Of a stretch of DNA of 64,000 nt, positions 5,420 through 47,119 are shown piece after piece. Below the pieces are notes generated by a model. That model saw only the letters and a program-made list of their open reading frames with translations, made no database searches and was not told where the DNA came from. The DNA comes from a virus (lineage: Duplodnaviria; Caudoviricetes). Each line of letters begins with the position of its first letter. Position 1 is the first letter of the stretch. The stretch covers positions 1-64,000 of IMG/VR virus record IMGVR_UViG_3300043120_000039. One strand, 5' to 3'. Position numbers and translations under genes: made by a program.

Positions 5420-7930
5420 ATGGCTAAGTTTGTTTTTGATATTGAGAGTACAGGATTAGCTAACCACCTATCCATAGATTACTCTAAGGAGGGATACCCC
5501 CTCAAAGATACTTTTAAAATTCACTGTATTGTAGCTCAGGATATTGAGACCTATAATATTTTTGCATTCTATGACGGCGATTACATAGAGGTTATAGATA
5601 AAGTAACAGGTAAGAAATTACCTTATAGACACTTCCAATTGGAAGATTTCAAACGAGTTCTAAAATCTGCCACTTCCCTGATTGGGCACAATATTTTGAA
5701 TTATGATTTACTCGTACTGAAAAAGTTATGGGGTATTGATTACACGGTAGGTGAAACTGAAGGTATCAATGACACAGTTGGAGGTAGGGAGTGTTTTATA
5801 GATGATACCTTAGTTAAAAGTAAGCTCTTGAACCCCGACAGGAAAGGTGGTCATAGTCTATCAAACTTCGGTAAAATCTTAGGTTTCGCTAAAGGTGACT
5901 ATGGAAAAGAACCTAATGCTTGGGATAAGTTCTCTCCTGAAATGTTAGCTTACTGTATAGATGATGTCAGGTTGAATACCAAGGTTCATGAGTACCTCAA
6001 TAGAGAATGGGGAGATTGGGATTGGTCCGATGCTTATAGACTTGAAAAAGCTGTAAAAGAACTAGTGACAAGAGGTGAGCAGAGAGGTTTTTACTTTGAT
6101 AAAGAACTAGCTGAGTGGTGTGAAAATGACTTGAACTCTAAATTGAAAGAGATCGAGGATAAAGTTCACCCTCTCCTACCTCGTAAACCTTTACCTAAGT
6201 CTAAACAACCTAACTTCCCAGCTAACCCTTTTGATAAGGATGGTAATATAGGTCATCATGGGTGGAATTTTCTAGAGAACCAATTAGGTTATAAGGTTAA
6301 CAGGGAAGCTCTAGATATTGTTAAACCTCCTAAGACAGCTTTTAAGAAAGATGGTACTATATCAACGGCTGGTAGGAACTATTGCAGTAAGTTAGGAGTA
6401 TCTAACGAATCAGAAATGCCTGATTTTATTAGGTCGCAGCTAGATAAAGTTAACACTCTTAAACCTTTACCTGATGATATATACGCTCTGGCTGTGAAAG
6501 ATTTGAGAGATGGACGTATGCCTGATCTTACTGTACCAATGCAACTATCAGATCAGAAAGAGTTAAAGGAGTACCTAGTAACTCTGGGTTGGAATCCTCA
6601 AGTGTGGTCAGAAGAGGATTTACGCCTTGACAAGAAAACTAAAAAACCAGTATCTAGAGAGCAGTATGAATCAAGGGTTGACAGGTACGTTAAAGAGACT
6701 TTAGAAAGCCCATTCTGTAAGTTTAGATGTGAGTATCTAAAGTGTACACCTGAGACTCTACGTAAGACACTTATGGATCATGATATTAGTAAACCGCTTA
6801 AGAGGTATGGTAGCCCTAAATACACTATTAACGATGATAAGGACATTGACCCTAACCTACTTAAATTAGGGGATCAGGTATCTTGGGTTAAAGATGTTGT
6901 AATGTGGTTAACTTATAGACACAGACGTAATGCTATCCATTCTCCACCAAACGCCAGTAAAAAGGAATGGAGTGGTTGGTTAGCTAATCCAAGAATATCT
7001 GTAGATAATAGGATACCTACCCCTGCTGACACTTGCGGCGCAGCAACAGGACGTTTTACCCACATAGATGTGTGTAACGTCCCTCGTGTAAGTAGTGTGT
7101 ATGGTGAGTACATGAGGTCTTTATTTGGTGTTGACAAGAGTACACATTATCAAATAGGTATGGATTTCGATAGTCTAGAGGCAAAAATAGAGGCTCATTT
7201 TTGTTACCCTTTTAAAGGTGGTAAAGATTATGGTGTAAGCCTAACCGCCGCAAAACCTAATGATATTCACACTGTTAATGCTATGAAAATGGGTGTTGAG
7301 CGAGATACAGCTAAAACTTTTAAATATGCTTGTAGCTATGGAGCACAACCACCTAAACTTGCAAAGCAAATGAACTGGGATCTAGGTAAGGCTAAGAAAG
7401 TATTTGAGGACTTCTGGGAGGCTTCATCACCACTTAGAGATTGTATTGAGGGTCTTAAAAGGGAGTGGACAAAAAACAATAAAAAGTTCATCAAGGGTTT
7501 AGATGGTCGTAAACTTTTTGTAAGAAGCCCCCATTCTATAGCTAACATGGCTTTTCAATCTAGTGGTGTAACTTGTGCAAAAAGAGCAGCAGTTTGGTGG
7601 GATAGACAGGTTAAAAATGAAAAGTTATCTGGTGTATCAATGCTTTGCATGTACCATGATGAGCAGCAAACAGAAGATCTTAAAGAGAATGTGAAGTTTA
7701 AGTTGTTTCCAACAAAGGAAGACGCCATATCTTGGAAAAGTCATGTTGAGAAAACTTCTAATAAGCTACTATCGGATGTAGGTCATAAAGGAGATAAATA
7801 TTTTGTGGCTTACTGTAGGTCTGGAGAACTAGCGGCTTTAAGTTGTAAGTATGCGAGTCAATATTATAACCTAAATGTAGAATTAAGTGGTGGTTATATG
7901 ATAGGTCAGAACTGGGCGGATTGTCACTAA
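5420..7930 (+). CDS. Family A DNA polymerase with 3'-5' exonuclease (T7-like)
   Basis: FDIE, GHNILNYD and YCIDDV exonuclease motifs; ATGRF; motif A DFDSLE; motif B KTFKYACSYG; motif C HDE. Confidence 0.95.
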   Translation: MAKFVFDIESTGLANHLSIDYSKEGYPLKDTFKIHCIVAQDIETYNIFAFYDGDYIEVIDKVTGKKLPYRHFQLEDFKRVLKSATSLIGHNILNYDLLVLKKLWGIDYTVGETEGINDTVGGRECFIDDTLVKSKLLNPDRKGGHSLSNFGKILGFAKGDYGKEPNAWDKFSPEMLAYCIDDVRLNTKVHEYLNREWGDWDWSDAYRLEKAVKELVTRGEQRGFYFDKELAEWCENDLNSKLKEIEDKVHPLLPRKPLPKSKQPNFPANPFDKDGNIGHHGWNFLENQLGYKVNREALDIVKPPKTAFKKDGTISTAGRNYCSKLGVSNESEMPDFIRSQLDKVNTLKPLPDDIYALAVKDLRDGRMPDLTVPMQLSDQKELKEYLVTLGWNPQVWSEEDLRLDKKTKKPVSREQYESRVDRYVKETLESPFCKFRCEYLKCTPETLRKTLMDHDISKPLKRYGSPKYTINDDKDIDPNLLKLGDQVSWVKDVVMWLTYRHRRNAIHSPPNASKKEWSGWLANPRISVDNRIPTPADTCGAATGRFTHIDVCNVPRVSSVYGEYMRSLFGVDKSTHYQIGMDFDSLEAKIEAHFCYPFKGGKDYGVSLTAAKPNDIHTVNAMKMGVERDTAKTFKYACSYGAQPPKLAKQMNWDLGKAKKVFEDFWEASSPLRDCIEGLKREWTKNNKKFIKGLDGRKLFVRSPHSIANMAFQSSGVTCAKRAAVWWDRQVKNEKLSGVSMLCMYHDEQQTEDLKENVKFKLFPTKEDAISWKSHVEKTSNKLLSDVGHKGDKYFVAYCRSGELAALSCKYASQYYNLNVELSGGYMIGQNWADCH

Positions 7931-7936
7931 GTAATG

Positions 7937-7966
7937 AAACCCTCTCTCAATTAGGAGAGAGGGTTT
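7937..7966 (+). terminator. Intrinsic terminator hairpin after the polymerase gene
   Basis: AAACCCTCTCTC...GAGAGAGGGTTT inverted repeat. Confidence 0.7.
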
Positions 7967-8026
7967 AAGTTATTGAGAATTATTATCATTTATGGTATAA
8001 TAACTATATAGCAAAAAGAGGTTATT

Positions 8027-8683
8027 ATGTCAATATTAATGGTAGATAATAAAAATAAATCAGGCATCTATACTATAACTAACCCATTCAACAATAAGGT
8101 TTACGTAGGTAAGACTAAATGTTTCTGGAAAAGGTATCACAACTACAAGTATGATTTCAAACACCTCAGAGACAGGAGTATAAACCAATATCTTATGAAC
8201 TCTTTCCTCAAGTATGGTTTTGAGAATTTTAGGTTTGAAGTTAAAGAATTCTGCGATCTGGAAGTTTGTGGTGAAAGGGAGTTGTACTGGATGGATACCC
8301 TTAATACCTGTAACAAAGAATATGGTTATAATCTTAGAAGGGATACAAGCACGGGGATGGTGGTTAGCGAAGTAACATCTAAGAAAATATCTGAGAGGTT
8401 GAAGAAAGAGTGGGCTGAAGGTAAAAGAGACTCCCACTCTGAAAAGTTAAAAGAATCTTGGAAAAGTCGAGATAAGAAGGCTCAAGGGGAAATCTTTTCT
8501 AAACTAAAAACTAAATACTTCTACAATATCGAATACCCAGATGGTACTATATTGAAAGAAATATTATACCAAGAGTTAGTTAGTCTCGGTTTGAAAAATG
8601 TAACAGCTACTTTCCACACTAAGAAAAAGGATAAGGTAGCCTTCAAAGGCTTCATTATAGAGAGGGTAAGATATGATCAATAA
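8027..8683 (+). CDS. Free-standing GIY-YIG homing endonuclease (Seg-like)
   Basis: GIYTITN...VYVG, R..H, E and GYN motifs; basic C-terminal region. Confidence 0.85.
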   Translation: MSILMVDNKNKSGIYTITNPFNNKVYVGKTKCFWKRYHNYKYDFKHLRDRSINQYLMNSFLKYGFENFRFEVKEFCDLEVCGERELYWMDTLNTCNKEYGYNLRRDTSTGMVVSEVTSKKISERLKKEWAEGKRDSHSEKLKESWKSRDKKAQGEIFSKLKTKYFYNIEYPDGTILKEILYQELVSLGLKNVTATFHTKKKDKVAFKGFIIERVRYDQ

Positions 8684-9236
8684 AGCCACCCTTCTCCGCT
8701 ATCTACCTCGCGGAGCAACATACACTGTTCTCAACCATAATCTTCTCATCAAAGTAGGTGATTCTTGGGAAGAAGGCTGCTTATATCAAAATGTAGATTC
8801 CTCTTCAAAACTCTTCGTTCGTCCATACAAAGCCTTCAACATGGATAAATGGGAAATCCTTGAGCAAGAATCATCTCTTCCACAAGAATGACTTTCCAAA
8901 AGTTTAATCTTCTTGTTGACAACATATCTTTCAAGTCATATAATCCTCTTAAATGTTATGTTTAAGAGGATTAATTTTATGTTCACATACAAAATTGTTA
9001 ATGAAGACGTAAGCGTTAAAAATGGTGATTACTATTTTCAAATCGAGACAACTTTCACAGTTTTTGGATGCGAAGTTTATAAAAGCCTAAAGGATGTAAG
9101 ATGTTACAGACATCCAGCAGTAGGTTATCTTCTTACAGATTTGAAAACTGGTAAGAATAGCTTTTTCAATCTTTACAGTCGTGAAATTGCAATTGAAGCA
9201 CAATTAAATAAGTTAGGTTTTAGTACAAAATAACCC

Positions 9237-21016: not shown

Positions 21017-21661
21017 TTACTCCTCAACACCAGTTGTCTCAAAGAAATCTGATAGATTATCAGGAAGTGTTACACCTAAATCTTGGGCTTGTTGTGCTAC
21101 ATCTTGACCAAGTAGGAATAATTGACTTGTTCGTTCTTCAGAGGTTTCAGTCTTCTTACTTGTTGTTGGAGAACCATCTAAACTTTTAGAAGTAGATGCA
21201 TCTGCGATCAAAGTAACACGTTGATAACCAACCCTTCGTGCTTGTTCAAAACTAATATCAAATGTGATAGAATCAAAACCTTCTTCACGAGGTTGGATAT
21301 TAGTAATATTCATTCTTGAATATTGTCTATTACCTTCGTCGATGAATAAGTCTGTATTGCTATTCCACCAACTATATAGCAAGTTTAAAGCTTCTTTAGG
21401 ACGCTCATTGAAGTCTGTATATCCAACAAGGTTACCGTCATATTTGATAACTGGAGTAGCTGTAACAGTAGCTGACATAGAAATAGCAATATTCTCTTTA
21501 ACCATGTGGTTAGTAATATCAGACTTATCACTAATAGTATACTTTGTCATTCGTGAAGCAAATGTTGGTGTAAAACTATGTACTGCATCAAAATAAAAGG
21601 AGGAGAAATCCCCTCCTCCAGTGTAGTTTGATTGAGTTGTAATATAAATAGGATCAGCCAT
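21017..21661 (-). CDS. Tail tube initiator/Dit-like protein
   Basis: FDA......S..T.Y.I.....ITNH motif, directly after the tape measure gene. Confidence 0.7.
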   Translation of the reverse strand: MADPIYITTQSNYTGGGDFSSFYFDAVHSFTPTFASRMTKYTISDKSDITNHMVKENIAISMSATVTATPVIKYDGNLVGYTDFNERPKEALNLLYSWWNSNTDLFIDEGNRQYSRMNITNIQPREEGFDSITFDISFEQARRVGYQRVTLIADASTSKSLDGSPTTSKKTETSEERTSQLFLLGQDVAQQAQDLGVTLPDNLSDFFETTGVEE

Positions 21662-24612
21662 TATTTAATACTCCCAGAAGAAAGATTCATTGCTGCACCT
21701 TCTAGCATATCACCATTACTCTTCTCAACTTTAGCTTCGATTACATCATCCAATCCATTAGGGTTGACGTTGATGTCAATTTGCAATTTACCACGCTCTT
21801 TAAGCCACTGCATAACATTAGCATTACGTTCATTAGTTGTAGAAAGTCTATCATATAAACTCGTACCACCTTCATAACCAGAGAGAAGTACACCTAATGG
21901 TCCAAGTAGCTTACCAGATTGTCTTAATGCACCTCTTGCTGCAGTTGATACTACACCTCTTGTGCCAGTGCTTGCTGCTGTTGTTGCAGCCGTAGTTGGT
22001 GCTTTTCCTGTTAAAGTTTTCATTGCATCTGCTGCACGTTTTGCAACTTTATAAGCAGTAGCTAAAGCTTTTACAGATTTAACTAATACCCACACACCTG
22101 CGGCGGCTCCAATCACTGTTCCTGTCCAAGTGAGAAGTGATTTAGTGGATTCATCACTTAACCCTGTTACATCTGAGATCCAATAAGCTAAATCTGTTAA
22201 TGCAGCTACTGGTAAACGAATAATGGTTGTTAACCCTAATAGAGCACCACCAAGTACAGTACCTGTAAAGTATGCAGCATTACCAGACTCTTTAGACAGA
22301 TCGTTGAAGCTATCTAATGCAAACATTACAGAAGGTTTCATCCCATCAAACATTTGCTTTTGTAATTCCACAAGTTGGTTACTTGCCCTACCAACTGCAG
22401 GTGATAAATTCTCTCGCAATGCTTTTGCTAATTCGTCATTGTTGTTAGCAAGTTCACTCATTGCTTTACCAAAGTATGGTAAAACTGTACCAGAGATTAA
22501 CTTACCTTGTTCCATTAATTTAAACAATGCAGCTTCACGTTCTTGAGCTGTCTTACTTCCGTCAATCAATCCAGCATCTACAGCAGCTTTTGCCATAGCA
22601 CGCATTGCGAACGGAACTCTCTCCATATCTTCAATTAAAGACGCAACTCTTTAACCAGCTTTCTTTATGTTTATCAACATTAAGTAGCATCTCTATGTCA
22701 CCATAGAAGTTGAGACTATATCTTCTATCTTTCGATAGCCCACCGTTTGGAGTATCATAAGCTTATACTCTACTCGCTTACATTCATCAGCGATAGTCGT
22801 TCGGCATGTTAAGAATAATTCTTAATTTAGCACAGGATTGTCTTCAATAAGAGTTCCCCTGTTTAGATGGGTTTATACTGAGCAAGAGACTGTTTTACCC
22901 AGTTGTTGTGTTCATTGTGTTCAATAATAATCGCTACTTATTATCCGCACCATTACGTGCTGCTATAGGCTTTCCCTATATGTTCGGACTATATCTTCAC
23001 CTTCACCATTATGTGTTAAGGGCGGTATTTAGAATGTCAATCGCTTACATTCACTTAGTCTCTGAGCCTTAATCTACTTGAGATTATTGGCTGCGGATTA
23101 CCCAATCTTGATAACTTTTTACTCTACCAAACACATTACTGTTTGCCCTTAACTATGTCACCATGCTAAGTTAGTATTATCAAGCTCTAAGTGGCTTCCC
23201 GCATTAACTCCGATTTATCAATTACATTTCTGTAAAAGGAGCCAGCACATTTTAAAATTACTAATAAAATCAATAACCTAGCTCGTCTGCTTGTATTTTA
23301 CCTTTCAATGTGTTCAACTAAGTTCGTTAAGCTTAGCCAGCAGCTTTACCTGCGTCTCTATGTCTCCATAGAAGTTCAGACTATATCCTCTGTACAATGT
23401 ACAGCTTCCTGTTTCGAGTCACTTGACCCTACTTGGCTACACTCATCACCAATAGTCGTTGCACGATCTCAATATTATTGAGCTTCGCTCAGGATTGTCC
23501 TCATCTTAAAATGTTAGGATGTTCCCTGAATTAAGGAAGTTTACCCTGCCCAAAAGTCTAGACAGCATTTGTTTAACAGCAAGAATTGTACCACCTAAGT
23601 CTTCCCGACTTAGACCCAATGCAACACCAGCTTCTTGAATACCTGTAAAGGTAGCTTTAAGGTCATCCATTGTCATCTTGTCGCCAGCAGCAGCAATCAT
23701 AGATGAGAAACCCTTACTTGCTTCCATGATTGGAGAACCTAAGCGCATAGCTTCTGAACGTACCCAAGCCATATTCTCTGCTGCTGCTTTAGAATCAGTT
23801 GATACAACTTTGAAACTCTTCTGCATAGATTCCATTTGCATACCGATGTTCAAAGAAGAACTAATTCCTGCTGTTAAAGCATAAGCACTACCGAGTGTTC
23901 CAACCATCTGCATTACGGAAGAGTTCATACGCTGTTGGAATACATTACGCTTTTCTACTTCACGTGTTAATCTACGATTCTGTGCAAGAGTATCAGAGAT
24001 TGCTGCACGTTCTTTTCTCATTAGATAAATAAGCTGTTCTTGAGTTTTAGCTTGCATGAGTTTCTGTTTAAGAACTGCTTTCTCTTCATCACTCATCTGC
24101 CTGATTGCACGATTAGATACCATGAAATTTCTAATAGACTTTTCTTGTAAAGCATTAAATTTTTCTTGGTCACGTTGCATTCTTACATGAGAATCATGAA
24201 GTGGTGATTTAGCTTTGTTTTCTGAGCGTAGTATATCAGCAAACATAGTCTGAGAAGCTTTGTTAGTGCCGTCAGATATTAAACCACCTACTGCTTGCTT
24301 CCTACGTGCATTCTGTTCCATTTGAACACGTTGTTCTTGTTTTTTAGCTAATTTGTCTTCAATTTTTAATTGGTCAGCAAGCAGGGTGTTAGATGCTTTT
24401 TGGAACTTAGTTTTATCTTCATAAGGTTTAGTTATTCTTGAACCAGAACCTCTTTTACTTGTACCTAAACCTCCAACATCTACTTGAAGTTTTAACATTT
24501 TAGCAACTTCAGATCTGAAGTTTTGTATCTGTTTACGAGTCCTTTTCAAACTTCGTTGATCAAGCTTTAACTTAACCAAGTTTGTATACTGACTCCTTAC
24601 ACGTTCTGTCAT
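21661..24612 (-). CDS. Tape measure protein, spliced: join(24612-23560, 23305-23280, 22912-22897, 22623-21661), about 685 aa
   Basis: Joining the exons gives KQMLS|KGKIQADEL|TQQLG|ERVPFA, the conserved tape-measure motif, in one continuous frame. Confidence 0.9.
22624..22896 (-). mobile_element. Group I intron 3 in tape measure gene (273 nt, no ORF)
   Basis: P1 cugggu/gcucag; AACGACUA and AAGAUAUAGUCU; terminal G; ucuc can pair with exon 4 gaga. Confidence 0.9.
22913..23279 (-). mobile_element. Group I intron 2 in tape measure gene (367 nt, no ORF)
   Basis: P1 gagcu/ggcuc; AGAGACUA and AAGAUAUAGUCC; terminal G. Confidence 0.88.
23306..23559 (-). mobile_element. Group I intron 1 in tape measure gene (254 nt, no ORF)
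   Basis: P1 cugucu/gggcag with U-G; P7 elements GACUA and GAUAUAGUC; ends in G; IGS acuuuu can pair with exon 2 aaaggu. Confidence 0.9.
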
Positions 24613-24768: not shown

Positions 24769-25875
24769 CTATTTGTTTGCTAAACGCAAACCATCTTTAA
24801 GAATATTCTTAGAAGCATTTAAATCTCTGTCAACAAGTTGACCACAATTATCACATTTCCAAGAAGATTCACCTAGCTTAAGATTATCATTCTTATAACC
24901 ACATTCGTAGTGAATCTTACTTGAAGGGTAGTATCTATCTACGAAGTAGATGTCAACACCCCTTAAGAAAGATTTATATTCTAGTTGCCTACGCAACTCA
25001 TACATACCTACATCTAGTACCAATCTGTTTAACTTTTTGTTCTTACCTCTCGTCATTGACGAAACAGATAAATCTTCTAAACAGATTGTTTTGTACTTAG
25101 ATGTGATTGTATGACTCACATTGTGAAGCAACGCTTCACGTTGTTTACGTATTCTAAAGTGAAGTTTACTAATCGAAAGCTTGGCTTTCGCATACCGATT
25201 AGATCCTTTCTTTTTCTTAGATAACTTCTTTTGAAGTTTAACTAACTTCTCTAAACTTAAAGATAGTTTGTTACTCTTTTGGAACCCAGTTCCATCAGAA
25301 AGTATAGCTAAATCTTTAATACCTAAGTCAATTCCAACTTCTCCGCTTTGCGGAAAGTCCCCTTTATAATTAGAACAACCTTCGACTAAGATAGAAGCCC
25401 ACCACTTATCGTTATGGTAAGATATAGTGACTTGTTTAGGAACACCATCGAAACGCAGTTTCTCACGTAATTTTAGAGGTTTACTATCTTTACCTCTATT
25501 GAACTTCTCTAAATAAAGGTTTCTTCCCTCTACTTTAAACTTCTTACTTTCTCTGATAGAGAAAGAATCTTTAGCTCCACGTTTCTTGAATCTTGGATAA
25601 CCACTTAGCTTCTTAAAGAAACGCTTATATGAGTTTTCTAAGTCATTAATAGATTCTTGGAGGATAGCCTGACTTACGTCAGAATACCACTCATTCTCTA
25701 CACGTAACGTGTTATAGAGATATTCTCTAGCTGTTTTCTTAGAAAACTTAACTCCTTCTTTAGAGAAATTATCTAACATACTATTGAAACAATGTCGTGT
25801 TGTTCCAACCCATTGTAGTAGTTTCTCATGTTGCTCTTTAGAAGGCCGTAATTCGACCTTATGTGCTAATAACAT
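24769..25875 (-). CDS. tnpB: TnpB RNA-guided nuclease (IS200/605/607 family), no transposase nearby
   Basis: N-terminal HTH; GYPRFKK; RuvC motifs GIDLG, LEDL and DRDLNAS; PSSK and CDNCG zinc ribbon. Confidence 0.93.
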   Translation of the reverse strand: MLLAHKVELRPSKEQHEKLLQWVGTTRHCFNSMLDNFSKEGVKFSKKTAREYLYNTLRVENEWYSDVSQAILQESINDLENSYKRFFKKLSGYPRFKKRGAKDSFSIRESKKFKVEGRNLYLEKFNRGKDSKPLKLREKLRFDGVPKQVTISYHNDKWWASILVEGCSNYKGDFPQSGEVGIDLGIKDLAILSDGTGFQKSNKLSLSLEKLVKLQKKLSKKKKGSNRYAKAKLSISKLHFRIRKQREALLHNVSHTITSKYKTICLEDLSVSSMTRGKNKKLNRLVLDVGMYELRRQLEYKSFLRGVDIYFVDRYYPSSKIHYECGYKNDNLKLGESSWKCDNCGQLVDRDLNASKNILKDGLRLANK

Positions 25876-45399: not shown

Positions 45400-47119
45400 T
45401 TATCGCATAGATTGTTTCATGTCATGATACTTTGTGCGGACAGATGTTGTTGGGATAGGGACTGGTCTGTGCACTTTGTTTATTTTTATTTGATGGAATG
45501 CATCAGCAGTGGCGTCACAGATATCGTCGTGGACACCAGATATACGCACACTTGGGTCAAATATTTCCAACTCTTCATGGAAAGTTTCATTCCAATCTGC
45601 CTTAACCACACTAACCATCCTATTTTCTGCAATTACTGCAAAAGGTTCAAATGCTTTTAGTTTACGGTTTTTAGTGTTTGATGTCTTCATACGCTTAACT
45701 AAAACACCTGCTGCTGATATATCTCCAATCATCTGGTCACAAGCTGCTTTTCCGCTCGACGATGGATCTTCTGGGATATAGGTTGTAACATTACCCCACT
45801 CTTCTTGATCACGCAACCCAGTTTGTATAATTTCATCCACCACACCGGCATACCTTTTCCTGAACCTAACCACATCAAGGATGTATATATGATGATCCTT
45901 ACCTTGACCCATAAGAACACCAACAGTATAATCAGGGTCTGGGTATTTTTCAGAAGGAATACTCCCAGCCAAGTCATAAGCACGTACTATTTTAACAAGG
46001 TCAGGTACATCATGAAGCATTACTGTTTCAGTCCACTCCCTCTTATATAAACCTGCTGCTGTTTCCTGTACAAGCCATGCACCGTTAAGTAGCCTCATCC
46101 TTTCAATACGAGGTAAGGATTTAAGACGTGAGACGTACAATGGATCATGCTCCAAAAGAATTGGATTGTCTTCACAAGTTGCTGAAATAAAACGAAAACT
46201 CATAGGCCCAGAATCTTCGCCATATTGTGAAACAAGTTCTTCTCTTGAATCACCCCAGATCATGTCATTACCTTGCCGGATAAACCACTTTTCTACACCA
46301 TCCATCTCTGGTTTAGGTATTCCATAGTTCTTTTCATCGAGATAACCTGCCGCCTGCAGCCATTTTCTTAGGTAGCAATTAAATTCTGGGTTGCACGTAA
46401 TCTTCATAACAGGCTTCATATTTGCCATAGTACGCATACGTGATATAAAATAAACCACCTGAGATTCAAGCATCTGCTGACCCTCATCAATGAGGAACGC
46501 TGCTACCTGCCAGCCTTGAAAATTGTGCTTATCGCTTTCTTTCTCGCAGTGACACATCTTAATTTCGGCACCGCTAGGAAATTTAAACTCCATTGTAGAA
46601 GGTTTGACATGTACAGAAGGACAAGCTTCTTTATACATATTCTGTGCCGTATCTAAAAGACCACCCACACCTTTAATCATCGGGGTTGTTCTTCGAACCA
46701 TTACCCCCCTAAATTCTGGCATATGAACATATTGAAGCATATCCATAATACCAAGATAGGATTTACCTGAACCCTTTTATCTTACAGTCGCTACACTGTT
46801 TCTAATGTTTCCACTAGGATCGGACTATATCTTCCGTCTTATAGACAGCCTCCTGTTTCGAAATCGCTTGATTCCTACTCTACTCCATTATATACTTTGT
46901 ATATTGTTTCGATAGTCTCTGAACGTTGAATCACTTAATGTGAAACCTTCGCTGCTGATTGCCCTCGGCTTAACGTTAGGGTTCCCAGACAATTAAAGAG
47001 GTATATTAAAGCGCAACCAGTTTGGTAAATTTAGCAGCGCCACCAAAAACTGTAATATCAGATTTTGATTGTAAGAACATAGCCTGCTTCTGAGAAGCAG
47101 GACCAAGTTTTTTAGTCAT
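45400..47119 (-). CDS. terL: Terminase large subunit, spliced: join(47119-47033, 46773-45400), about 486 aa
   Basis: Splicing restores Walker A GGAA|GSGKS; also IDE Walker B, TCNP, YDLA and HDD.CDA nuclease motifs. Confidence 0.93.
46774..47032 (-). mobile_element. Group I intron in terL (259 nt, no ORF)
   Basis: P1 gcgcugcu/gguugcgc with U-G; CAGAGACUA and AAGAUAUAGUCC P7 elements; terminal G. Confidence 0.9.

Follow-up and report, generated by a model that had tools for sequence, protein, structure and literature searches.

How does a phage obtain one intact tape-measure protein (TMP) from a gene that is interrupted within its most conserved motif? The question is raised by the TMP locus of a stretch of 64,000 nucleotides (nt), called the window in the following, which covers positions 1 to 64,000 of the IMG/VR record IMGVR_UViG_3300043120_000039, a 124,995 bp uncultured phage of Vibrio type. 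On the minus strand of the window two mechanically derived open reading frames (ORFs), ORF1 at 24612-23506 (368 aa) and ORF2 at 22626-21661 (321 aa), are separated by about 880 nt. An original prediction, made from the letters of the window, placed three group I introns and two micro-exons in this gap. Our analysis leads us with high confidence to a TMP gene of four exons and three group I introns, which is spliced to a protein of 685 aa. The intron cores and their boundaries, the reading frame, empty-site alleles in relatives and the covariation of guides with exons could be observed directly. Splicing in the window phage is something we infer by homology with the cholera phage ICP1.

A probable four-exon tape-measure gene

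Both halves of the locus match TMP families. PHROG 35923 and PHROG 25927, each described as tail length tape measure protein, were found, and ORF1 additionally matches Pfam TMP_3 (PF20155) with its residues 254-351 on profile positions 4-102 of 192 (42.4 bits, cut-off 41). On PHROG 25927 the match of ORF1 covers positions 59-278 and that of ORF2 begins at position 293, leaving between them a hole of 14 positions, exactly the number of residues that come from the two micro-exons (Table 1). The inner ends of the ORFs lie in intron sequence: ORF1 reaches its stop 17 codons inside intron 1, and the ATG of ORF2 at 22626 consists of the final three bases of intron 3.

Joining the four exons gives 2058 nt which encode 685 aa without a stop. 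The micro-exons have exactly the predicted lengths, the three introns add up to the predicted 894 nt, and the series QMLS-KGKIQADEL-TQQLG-ERVP is rebuilt in frame as had been proposed. The predicted spliced TMP would hold the junction-spanning peptide IQADELTQQLGER.

Table 1. Exons and introns of the tape-measure gene in the window, in order of transcription
Feature	Coordinates	Strand	Description
TMP exon 1	23560..24612	-	351 codons, ending in ...QMLS; Pfam TMP_3, PHROG
Group I intron 1 (site A)	23306..23559	-	254 nt; guide GGGCAG at 23551-23546
Micro-exon 1	23280..23305	-	26 nt; KGKIQADE and first 2 nt of a Leu codon
Group I intron 2 (site C)	22913..23279	-	367 nt; guide GGCUC at 23243-23239
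Micro-exon 2	22897..22912	-	16 nt; third base of the Leu codon and TQQLG
Group I intron 3 (site D)	22624..22896	-	273 nt; guide GCUCAGU at 22883-22877
TMP exon 4	21661..22623	-	320 codons and stop, starting with ERVPFAMRAM; PHROG 25927 positions 293-623 of 625

Cores, boundaries and pairings of the introns

The predicted coordinates of the three group I cores hold to the base. In the proposed Infernal scan with the Rfam covariance model RF00028 (gathering score 50 bits) introns 1 and 3 score above the gathering value, with 74.3 bits (23599-23356, E 5.1e-17) and 59.6 bits (22952-22691, E 1.4e-12), and the middle intron reaches 48.9 bits (23265-22963, E 1.5e-11). All three matches span model positions 1-253. 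The introns found at the place of intron 2 in the phages vB_CoeS_P1 and 10AMN score 50.2 and 82.7 bits, respectively.

Each intron was expected to have a P1 helix with a U·G pair, P7 strands GACUA / GAUAUAGUC and a terminal G, and all of these are visible. P1 has 6 bp in intron 1 (CUGUCU/GGGCAG), 5 bp in intron 2 (GAGCU/GGCUC) and 7 bp in intron 3 (ACUGGGU/GCUCAGU), and in every case the U that closes the upstream exon forms the U·G pair. P10 arises between the first bases of the following exon and the bases immediately 5' of the guide; it has 6 bp in intron 1 (AAAGGU/ACUUUU) as well as in intron 3 (GAGAGA/UCUCUU). In the two micro-exons the bases used for P10 of the upstream intron and those used for P1 of the downstream intron do not overlap, and therefore the three ribozymes can in principle act independently.

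The introns are ORF-less, as had been claimed: on the coding strand no ORF longer than 28 aa lies inside them. Two ORFs on the plus strand of the intron stretch (54 and 57 aa) have no Pfam match, and minus-strand terminator-like sites were not found in this stretch.

Uninterrupted genes and empty sites

The TMP of Vibrio phage VnaP is continuous (680 aa). It aligns to the spliced window protein with 42% identity (E 3e-155), and the alignment is gapless over residues 296-475, which span the junction; here the window has KGKIQADELTQQLGE opposite KNKIMAEELTGQLGE in VnaP. The TMP_3 domain of VnaP (residues 243-443) crosses the junction point. The phages 1.063.O, RYC and 1.121.O are further uninterrupted relatives with the same motif.

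Single sites were also found empty. The site of intron 1 (site A) is empty in ICP1, R16F, P018-4, 496E54-1 and VnaP, and that of intron 2 (site C) in 1.084.O, qdvp001 and VnaP. The site of intron 3 (site D) is precisely empty in the IMG/VR contig L020, which reads there the codons L-G-E-R-V-P with synonymous differences from the window. L020 and a second IMG/VR contig, L021, are about 97% identical to the window, and their exon 1 proteins are 99% identical; for L020 the flanking DNA matches with 97.7% over 4.7 kb and 97.2% over 4.3 kb. Both contigs (L020 at 6973-8800) carry three introns, with site D empty. L020 has intron 1 in common with the window, an extra intron 18 nt downstream (site B), where the window is continuous, and at site C an intron that is larger than that of the window and carries an ORF. 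Near-identical phages differ in the sites that are filled.

In exon 4, L020 and the window differ at 67 positions within the first 540 nt and at none within the last 420, a pattern that exchange around the intron block would leave. The intron-3-less form of L020 also occurs in sequencing run X3, where a DNA contig is shorter than the window by a net 273 nt. A contig from run X5, considered as an intron-2-less allele, was not counted: it lacks 369 nt of the window and has 2 letters in their place, which makes it shorter by a net 367 nt, the length of intron 2, and with the letters of the window a stop codon would stand at the junction.

A map of insertion sites

The TMP loci of 13 phages were mapped. 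Their introns occupy five insertion sites, named Z, A, B, C and D, inside 60 coding nt with successive spacings of 18, 18, 8 and 16 nt, and the number of introns per phage ranges from 0 to 4. The window has A, C and D filled. Phage vB_CoeS_P1 has A, B, C and D filled, with micro-exons of 18, 8 and 16 nt, and 10AMN has Z (with an HNH_3 gene), A, C and D. ICP1_2012_A has introns at B, C (with an HNH_3 gene) and D, leaving micro-exons of 8 and 16 nt. Phage 1.084.O is filled at A, B and D, where two of the introns have HNH genes; qdvp001 is filled at A only, and P018-4, 496E54-1 and R16F at C only. No site is filled in VnaP, 1.063.O, RYC and 1.121.O. The Rfam matches in the mapped loci are consistent with these site maps.

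Twenty of the 21 introns examined have a mismatch-free P1 with U·G; for the site B intron of 1.084.O such a P1 was not found, and P10 was not found for two of the 21. The helices vary in sequence from phage to phage. At site D the pairs ACUGGGU/GCUCAGU, ACUAGGU/GCCUAGU and ACUUGGU/GCCAAGU occur, so that, depending on the phage, a G-C, A-U or U-A pair stands at the fourth base from the splice site. Site C shows GAGCU/GGCUC, GAACU/GGUUC, GAGGU/GCCUC and GAGUU/GACUC, and at site A position -6 takes three different Watson-Crick pairs among the phages. The guides thus co-vary with synonymous exon positions, which is strong evidence that the P1 helices are used.

Between introns B and C of vB_CoeS_P1 (L001 3378-4591) and ICP1_2012_A (L003 5263-7056) the exon measures 8 nt, and here about 2 nt would be needed both for P10 of the upstream intron and for P1 of the downstream one. 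Both helices cannot pair simultaneously, which hints at splicing in a certain order.

An alignment-based search gave a wider set, 57 IMG/VR loci whose proteins are of the TMP_3 type (a search with one protein had given 2). At the junction 47 of these loci are uninterrupted, most of them distant relatives, while nine are split and one has the N-terminal part only. Five of the nine split loci were scanned with Rfam. In one of these genes (L026) an insert of 1116 extra nt splits the TMP at the junction, and no RF00028 match was found at E <= 0.001; it may be an intron that has diverged, or an insert of a different nature. In a marine TMP gene (L028, 1529-2183) three back-to-back group I matches of 58.9, 82.6 and 58.4 bits begin upstream of site A of the window, by about 9 codons, and the exons are not separable by eye. 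A further locus, L031, has two group I matches in its TMP gene.

Relations of the introns to each other and to other phage introns

Introns 1 and 3 of the window are paralogues, with 172 of 241 aligned positions in common and an alignment score of 210.5 as compared with 91.5 (sd 7.0) for shuffled sequences. Intron 3 resembles the intron that separates the two nrdD halves in the T4-like phage HY03 (75.6% identity over 189 nt), and intron 2 shares 86% identity, over a part of 115 nt, with the lysin-gene intron of Staphylococcus phage PALS_1 (Twortvirinae). The host genes and the guides of these T4-type nrdD (sunY) and Twortvirinae lysin introns differ from those of the window introns. We take the nrdD and lysin introns to belong to subgroup IA2, and it is these that intron 3 and part of intron 2 resemble by DNA similarity. 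In a four-sequence alignment of the site D introns 29 of 73 predicted pairs show a compensatory change, a count that rests mainly on three sequences, as the ICP1 row is misaligned at its 5' end.

Weighing the gene model

Several points speak against a gene that is spliced three times. Intron 2 lies 1.1 bits under the Rfam gathering threshold, has a P1 of just 5 bp closing a 36-nt loop, and has a weak, offset P10 of 4 bp. In addition, the search of sequencing runs listed no RNA run with the window stretch, and the RNA-labelled runs X23 and X24 gave short intron-core-like pieces only and no exon-exon joint.

Could the introns be dead relics, and the TMP be made as two cooperating polypeptides of 368 and 321 aa, as in genes-in-pieces? 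Both mechanical ORFs do have an ATG start and a stop, and GenBank records of relatives annotate two TMP coding sequences (CDSs). We nevertheless consider this very improbable, as the start codon of ORF2 belongs to intron 3, the micro-exons are conserved with synonymous changes only, the guides co-vary with the exons and the cores score as full-length RF00028 matches; besides, a spliced product has been described for ICP1 (PMC10448857). We give even less credit, indeed hardly any, to an assembly artefact in which repeated intron-like sequence was mis-joined during metagenome assembly. The source is a contig of an uncultured virus and the introns resemble one another, yet the isolates vB_CoeS_P1, 10AMN and ICP1 have the same kind of array at the same sites, the frame closes exactly, and two sequencing runs (both of which may be the source) hold all sampled words of the stretch.

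A different matter is whether alternative products arise besides the fully spliced one. A hybrid fold of introns 1 and 3, or a cross-reaction between them, could join exon 1 to exon 4 and give a TMP minus 14 residues, while skipping just one micro-exon would put the following codons out of frame and reduce the yield. The paralogy of introns 1 and 3, far above shuffled sequences, would allow such an event; the two micro-exons together have 42 nt and their loss keeps the frame; and exon skipping has been reported for the introns of Twort orf142 and of the SIOphi polymerase gene (PMC11878797, PMC3073962). Against this stands that introns 1 and 3 have guides with specificity for different exon ends and that in all relatives, with or without an interrupted gene, it is these 14 residues that are conserved best in the protein. 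We think such products unlikely. The reading that we prefer remains the four-exon gene with complete splicing.

Proposed mechanism and origin

In the mechanism that we propose, an ICP1-related myovirus of about 125 kb would have one TMP gene of four exons, with the most conserved motif of TMP_3 interrupted within 42 coding nt by three phage-type group I ribozymes without a homing-endonuclease gene. After transcription each intron would fold separately. Its guide would pair with the last 5-7 nt of the upstream exon (P1, with U·G at the cleavage site) and the guide region would also pair with the first nt of the downstream exon (P10), whereupon the intron would be excised via two guanosine-dependent transesterifications. 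The messenger RNA for the 685-aa TMP would need the splicing of all three introns.

The introns would be selfish elements, acquired from co-infecting relatives through homing or recombination. In relatives, introns with an HNH gene occur at sites Z, A, C and D, and the introns of the window may be empty derivatives of the endonuclease-bearing versions that other phages have at A, C and D. CapR/T5orf172 nuclease genes flank the TMP gene in relatives. A tentative idea, which we rate as possible but on the doubtful side, is that the endonuclease-less stack is retained as a protection of the phage, each intron splitting the target of a different homing endonuclease that co-infecting relatives carry, together with a possible in-frame skipping of 14 codons via introns 1 and 3. 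If this were true, stacking within 42 nt would add up to cumulative immunity in an arms race that is fought over the best conserved TMP motif.

Neighboring features and annotation

Other features of the same genome may be added here. A fourth group I match lies in the window at 46801-47058 on the minus strand (RF00028, 72.1 bits), and a weak fifth group I-like match was found outside the window at 85890-86065 on the plus strand (32.6 bits, E 7.5e-8, below the gathering score). Between the tail chaperone region and the TMP start a TnpB-type gene is located at 24769-25875 on the minus strand (OrfB_IS605, Cas12f1-like TNB and HTH domains); no tnpA was seen with it. This gene is also present in L020 within the contiguous 97.7% alignment, and relatives have the CapR/T5orf172 nuclease genes beside TMP instead. 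In vB_CoeS_P1 the gene order is chaperone, TMP, baseplate hub.

The GenBank records PV206818, KT932418, PP934186, OP793884 and OR472329 present the interrupted TMP as two CDSs named 'tape measure' or hypothetical, and miss the micro-exons. Gene finders and GenBank thus split an essential gene and lose 14 codons, and a correct gene model therefore matters for annotation.

Comparison with known systems

The nearest isolate is vB_CoeS_P1 (PV206818). Introns A, C and D of the two phages share 87-90% DNA identity, a match confined to the intron block with its nearest surroundings, at about 22247-23892 of the window. Micro-exon 2 is identical in both phages, and the stretch of the window's micro-exon 1 differs at three synonymous third positions only. 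Unlike the window, vB_CoeS_P1 has a fourth intron (site B). Its exon 1 protein is only 61% identical to that of the window, so that the intron block is more alike than the gene, which points to lateral movement of the block.

For ICP1, Barth, Dunham and Seed (2023, PMC10448857) describe a TMP transcript that comprises four exons along with three introns on the basis of RNA-seq, RT-PCR and Sanger sequencing, a splice that Boyd et al. (2021, PMC9040626) had predicted earlier. According to the former report the middle intron usually has an HNH-3 gene, endonuclease content varies among ICP1 isolates with constant splice junctions, and TMP is often interrupted in other phages. It also describes a terL intron in ICP1 that adjoins a free-standing nuclease gene and was shown to splice; a terL intron beside a free-standing endonuclease gene is found in the window phage, too. 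The micro-exon sizes and site assignments that we use for ICP1 come from our own mapping of ICP1_2012_A. The TMPs are homologous, with 30-31% amino acid identity in exon 1 (tblastn), and both phages have four exons, three introns and the same conserved motif (SK..I.AEEL..QLGE). Introns 2 and 3 of ICP1 occupy sites C and D, as do those of the window, and have the same type of P1, and exon 3 of ICP1 also has 16 nt. They differ in two of the introns. The first one occupies site B in ICP1, 18 nt downstream of site A as used in the window, so that the first micro-exon has 8 instead of 26 nt; the middle one carries an HNH_3 endonuclease gene in ICP1 whereas all window introns are ORF-less. Splicing is proven for ICP1, and for the window phage we infer it.

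More distant parallels are known as well. On the tail tube gene orf142 of Twort, PMC11878797 and PMC3073962 cite Landthaler and Shub (1999); as these sources present it, this one tail structural gene of a large myovirus holds, like the TMP gene of the window, three group I introns which resemble each other and are ORF-less. The gene and the phage family are different, and exon skipping has been shown in Twort. In prophages of the Bacillus cereus group Tourasse and Kolsto (2008, PMC2504315) describe TMP group I introns, TMP-IVS1/2/3, at three sites. Like in the window there are several TMP introns, paralogues re-targeted via P1, most of them without an endonuclease gene; these TMPs belong to siphovirus prophages and exceed 1200 aa, and the description consulted does not place the three sites within tens of nt.

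That phage introns sit mostly in genes of DNA metabolism or in terminase genes, as the original prediction held, agrees with the account of Weglewska et al. (2025, PMC11878797). The statement of the original prediction that three introns so close together in a structural gene are very unusual was too strong in view of the TMP of ICP1 (PMC10448857), the Bacillus TMP introns (PMC2504315) and Twort orf142 (PMC11878797). The locus is a well-resolved case of a recurrent intron hot spot and no new kind of element. It offers a natural system for studying the gain and loss of introns, the co-evolution of guides and exons, and ribozymes that have to cope with exons of 8-26 nt. The array of the window is a member of a published kind, distinct by its set of filled sites and by the lack of an endonuclease gene from all three introns.

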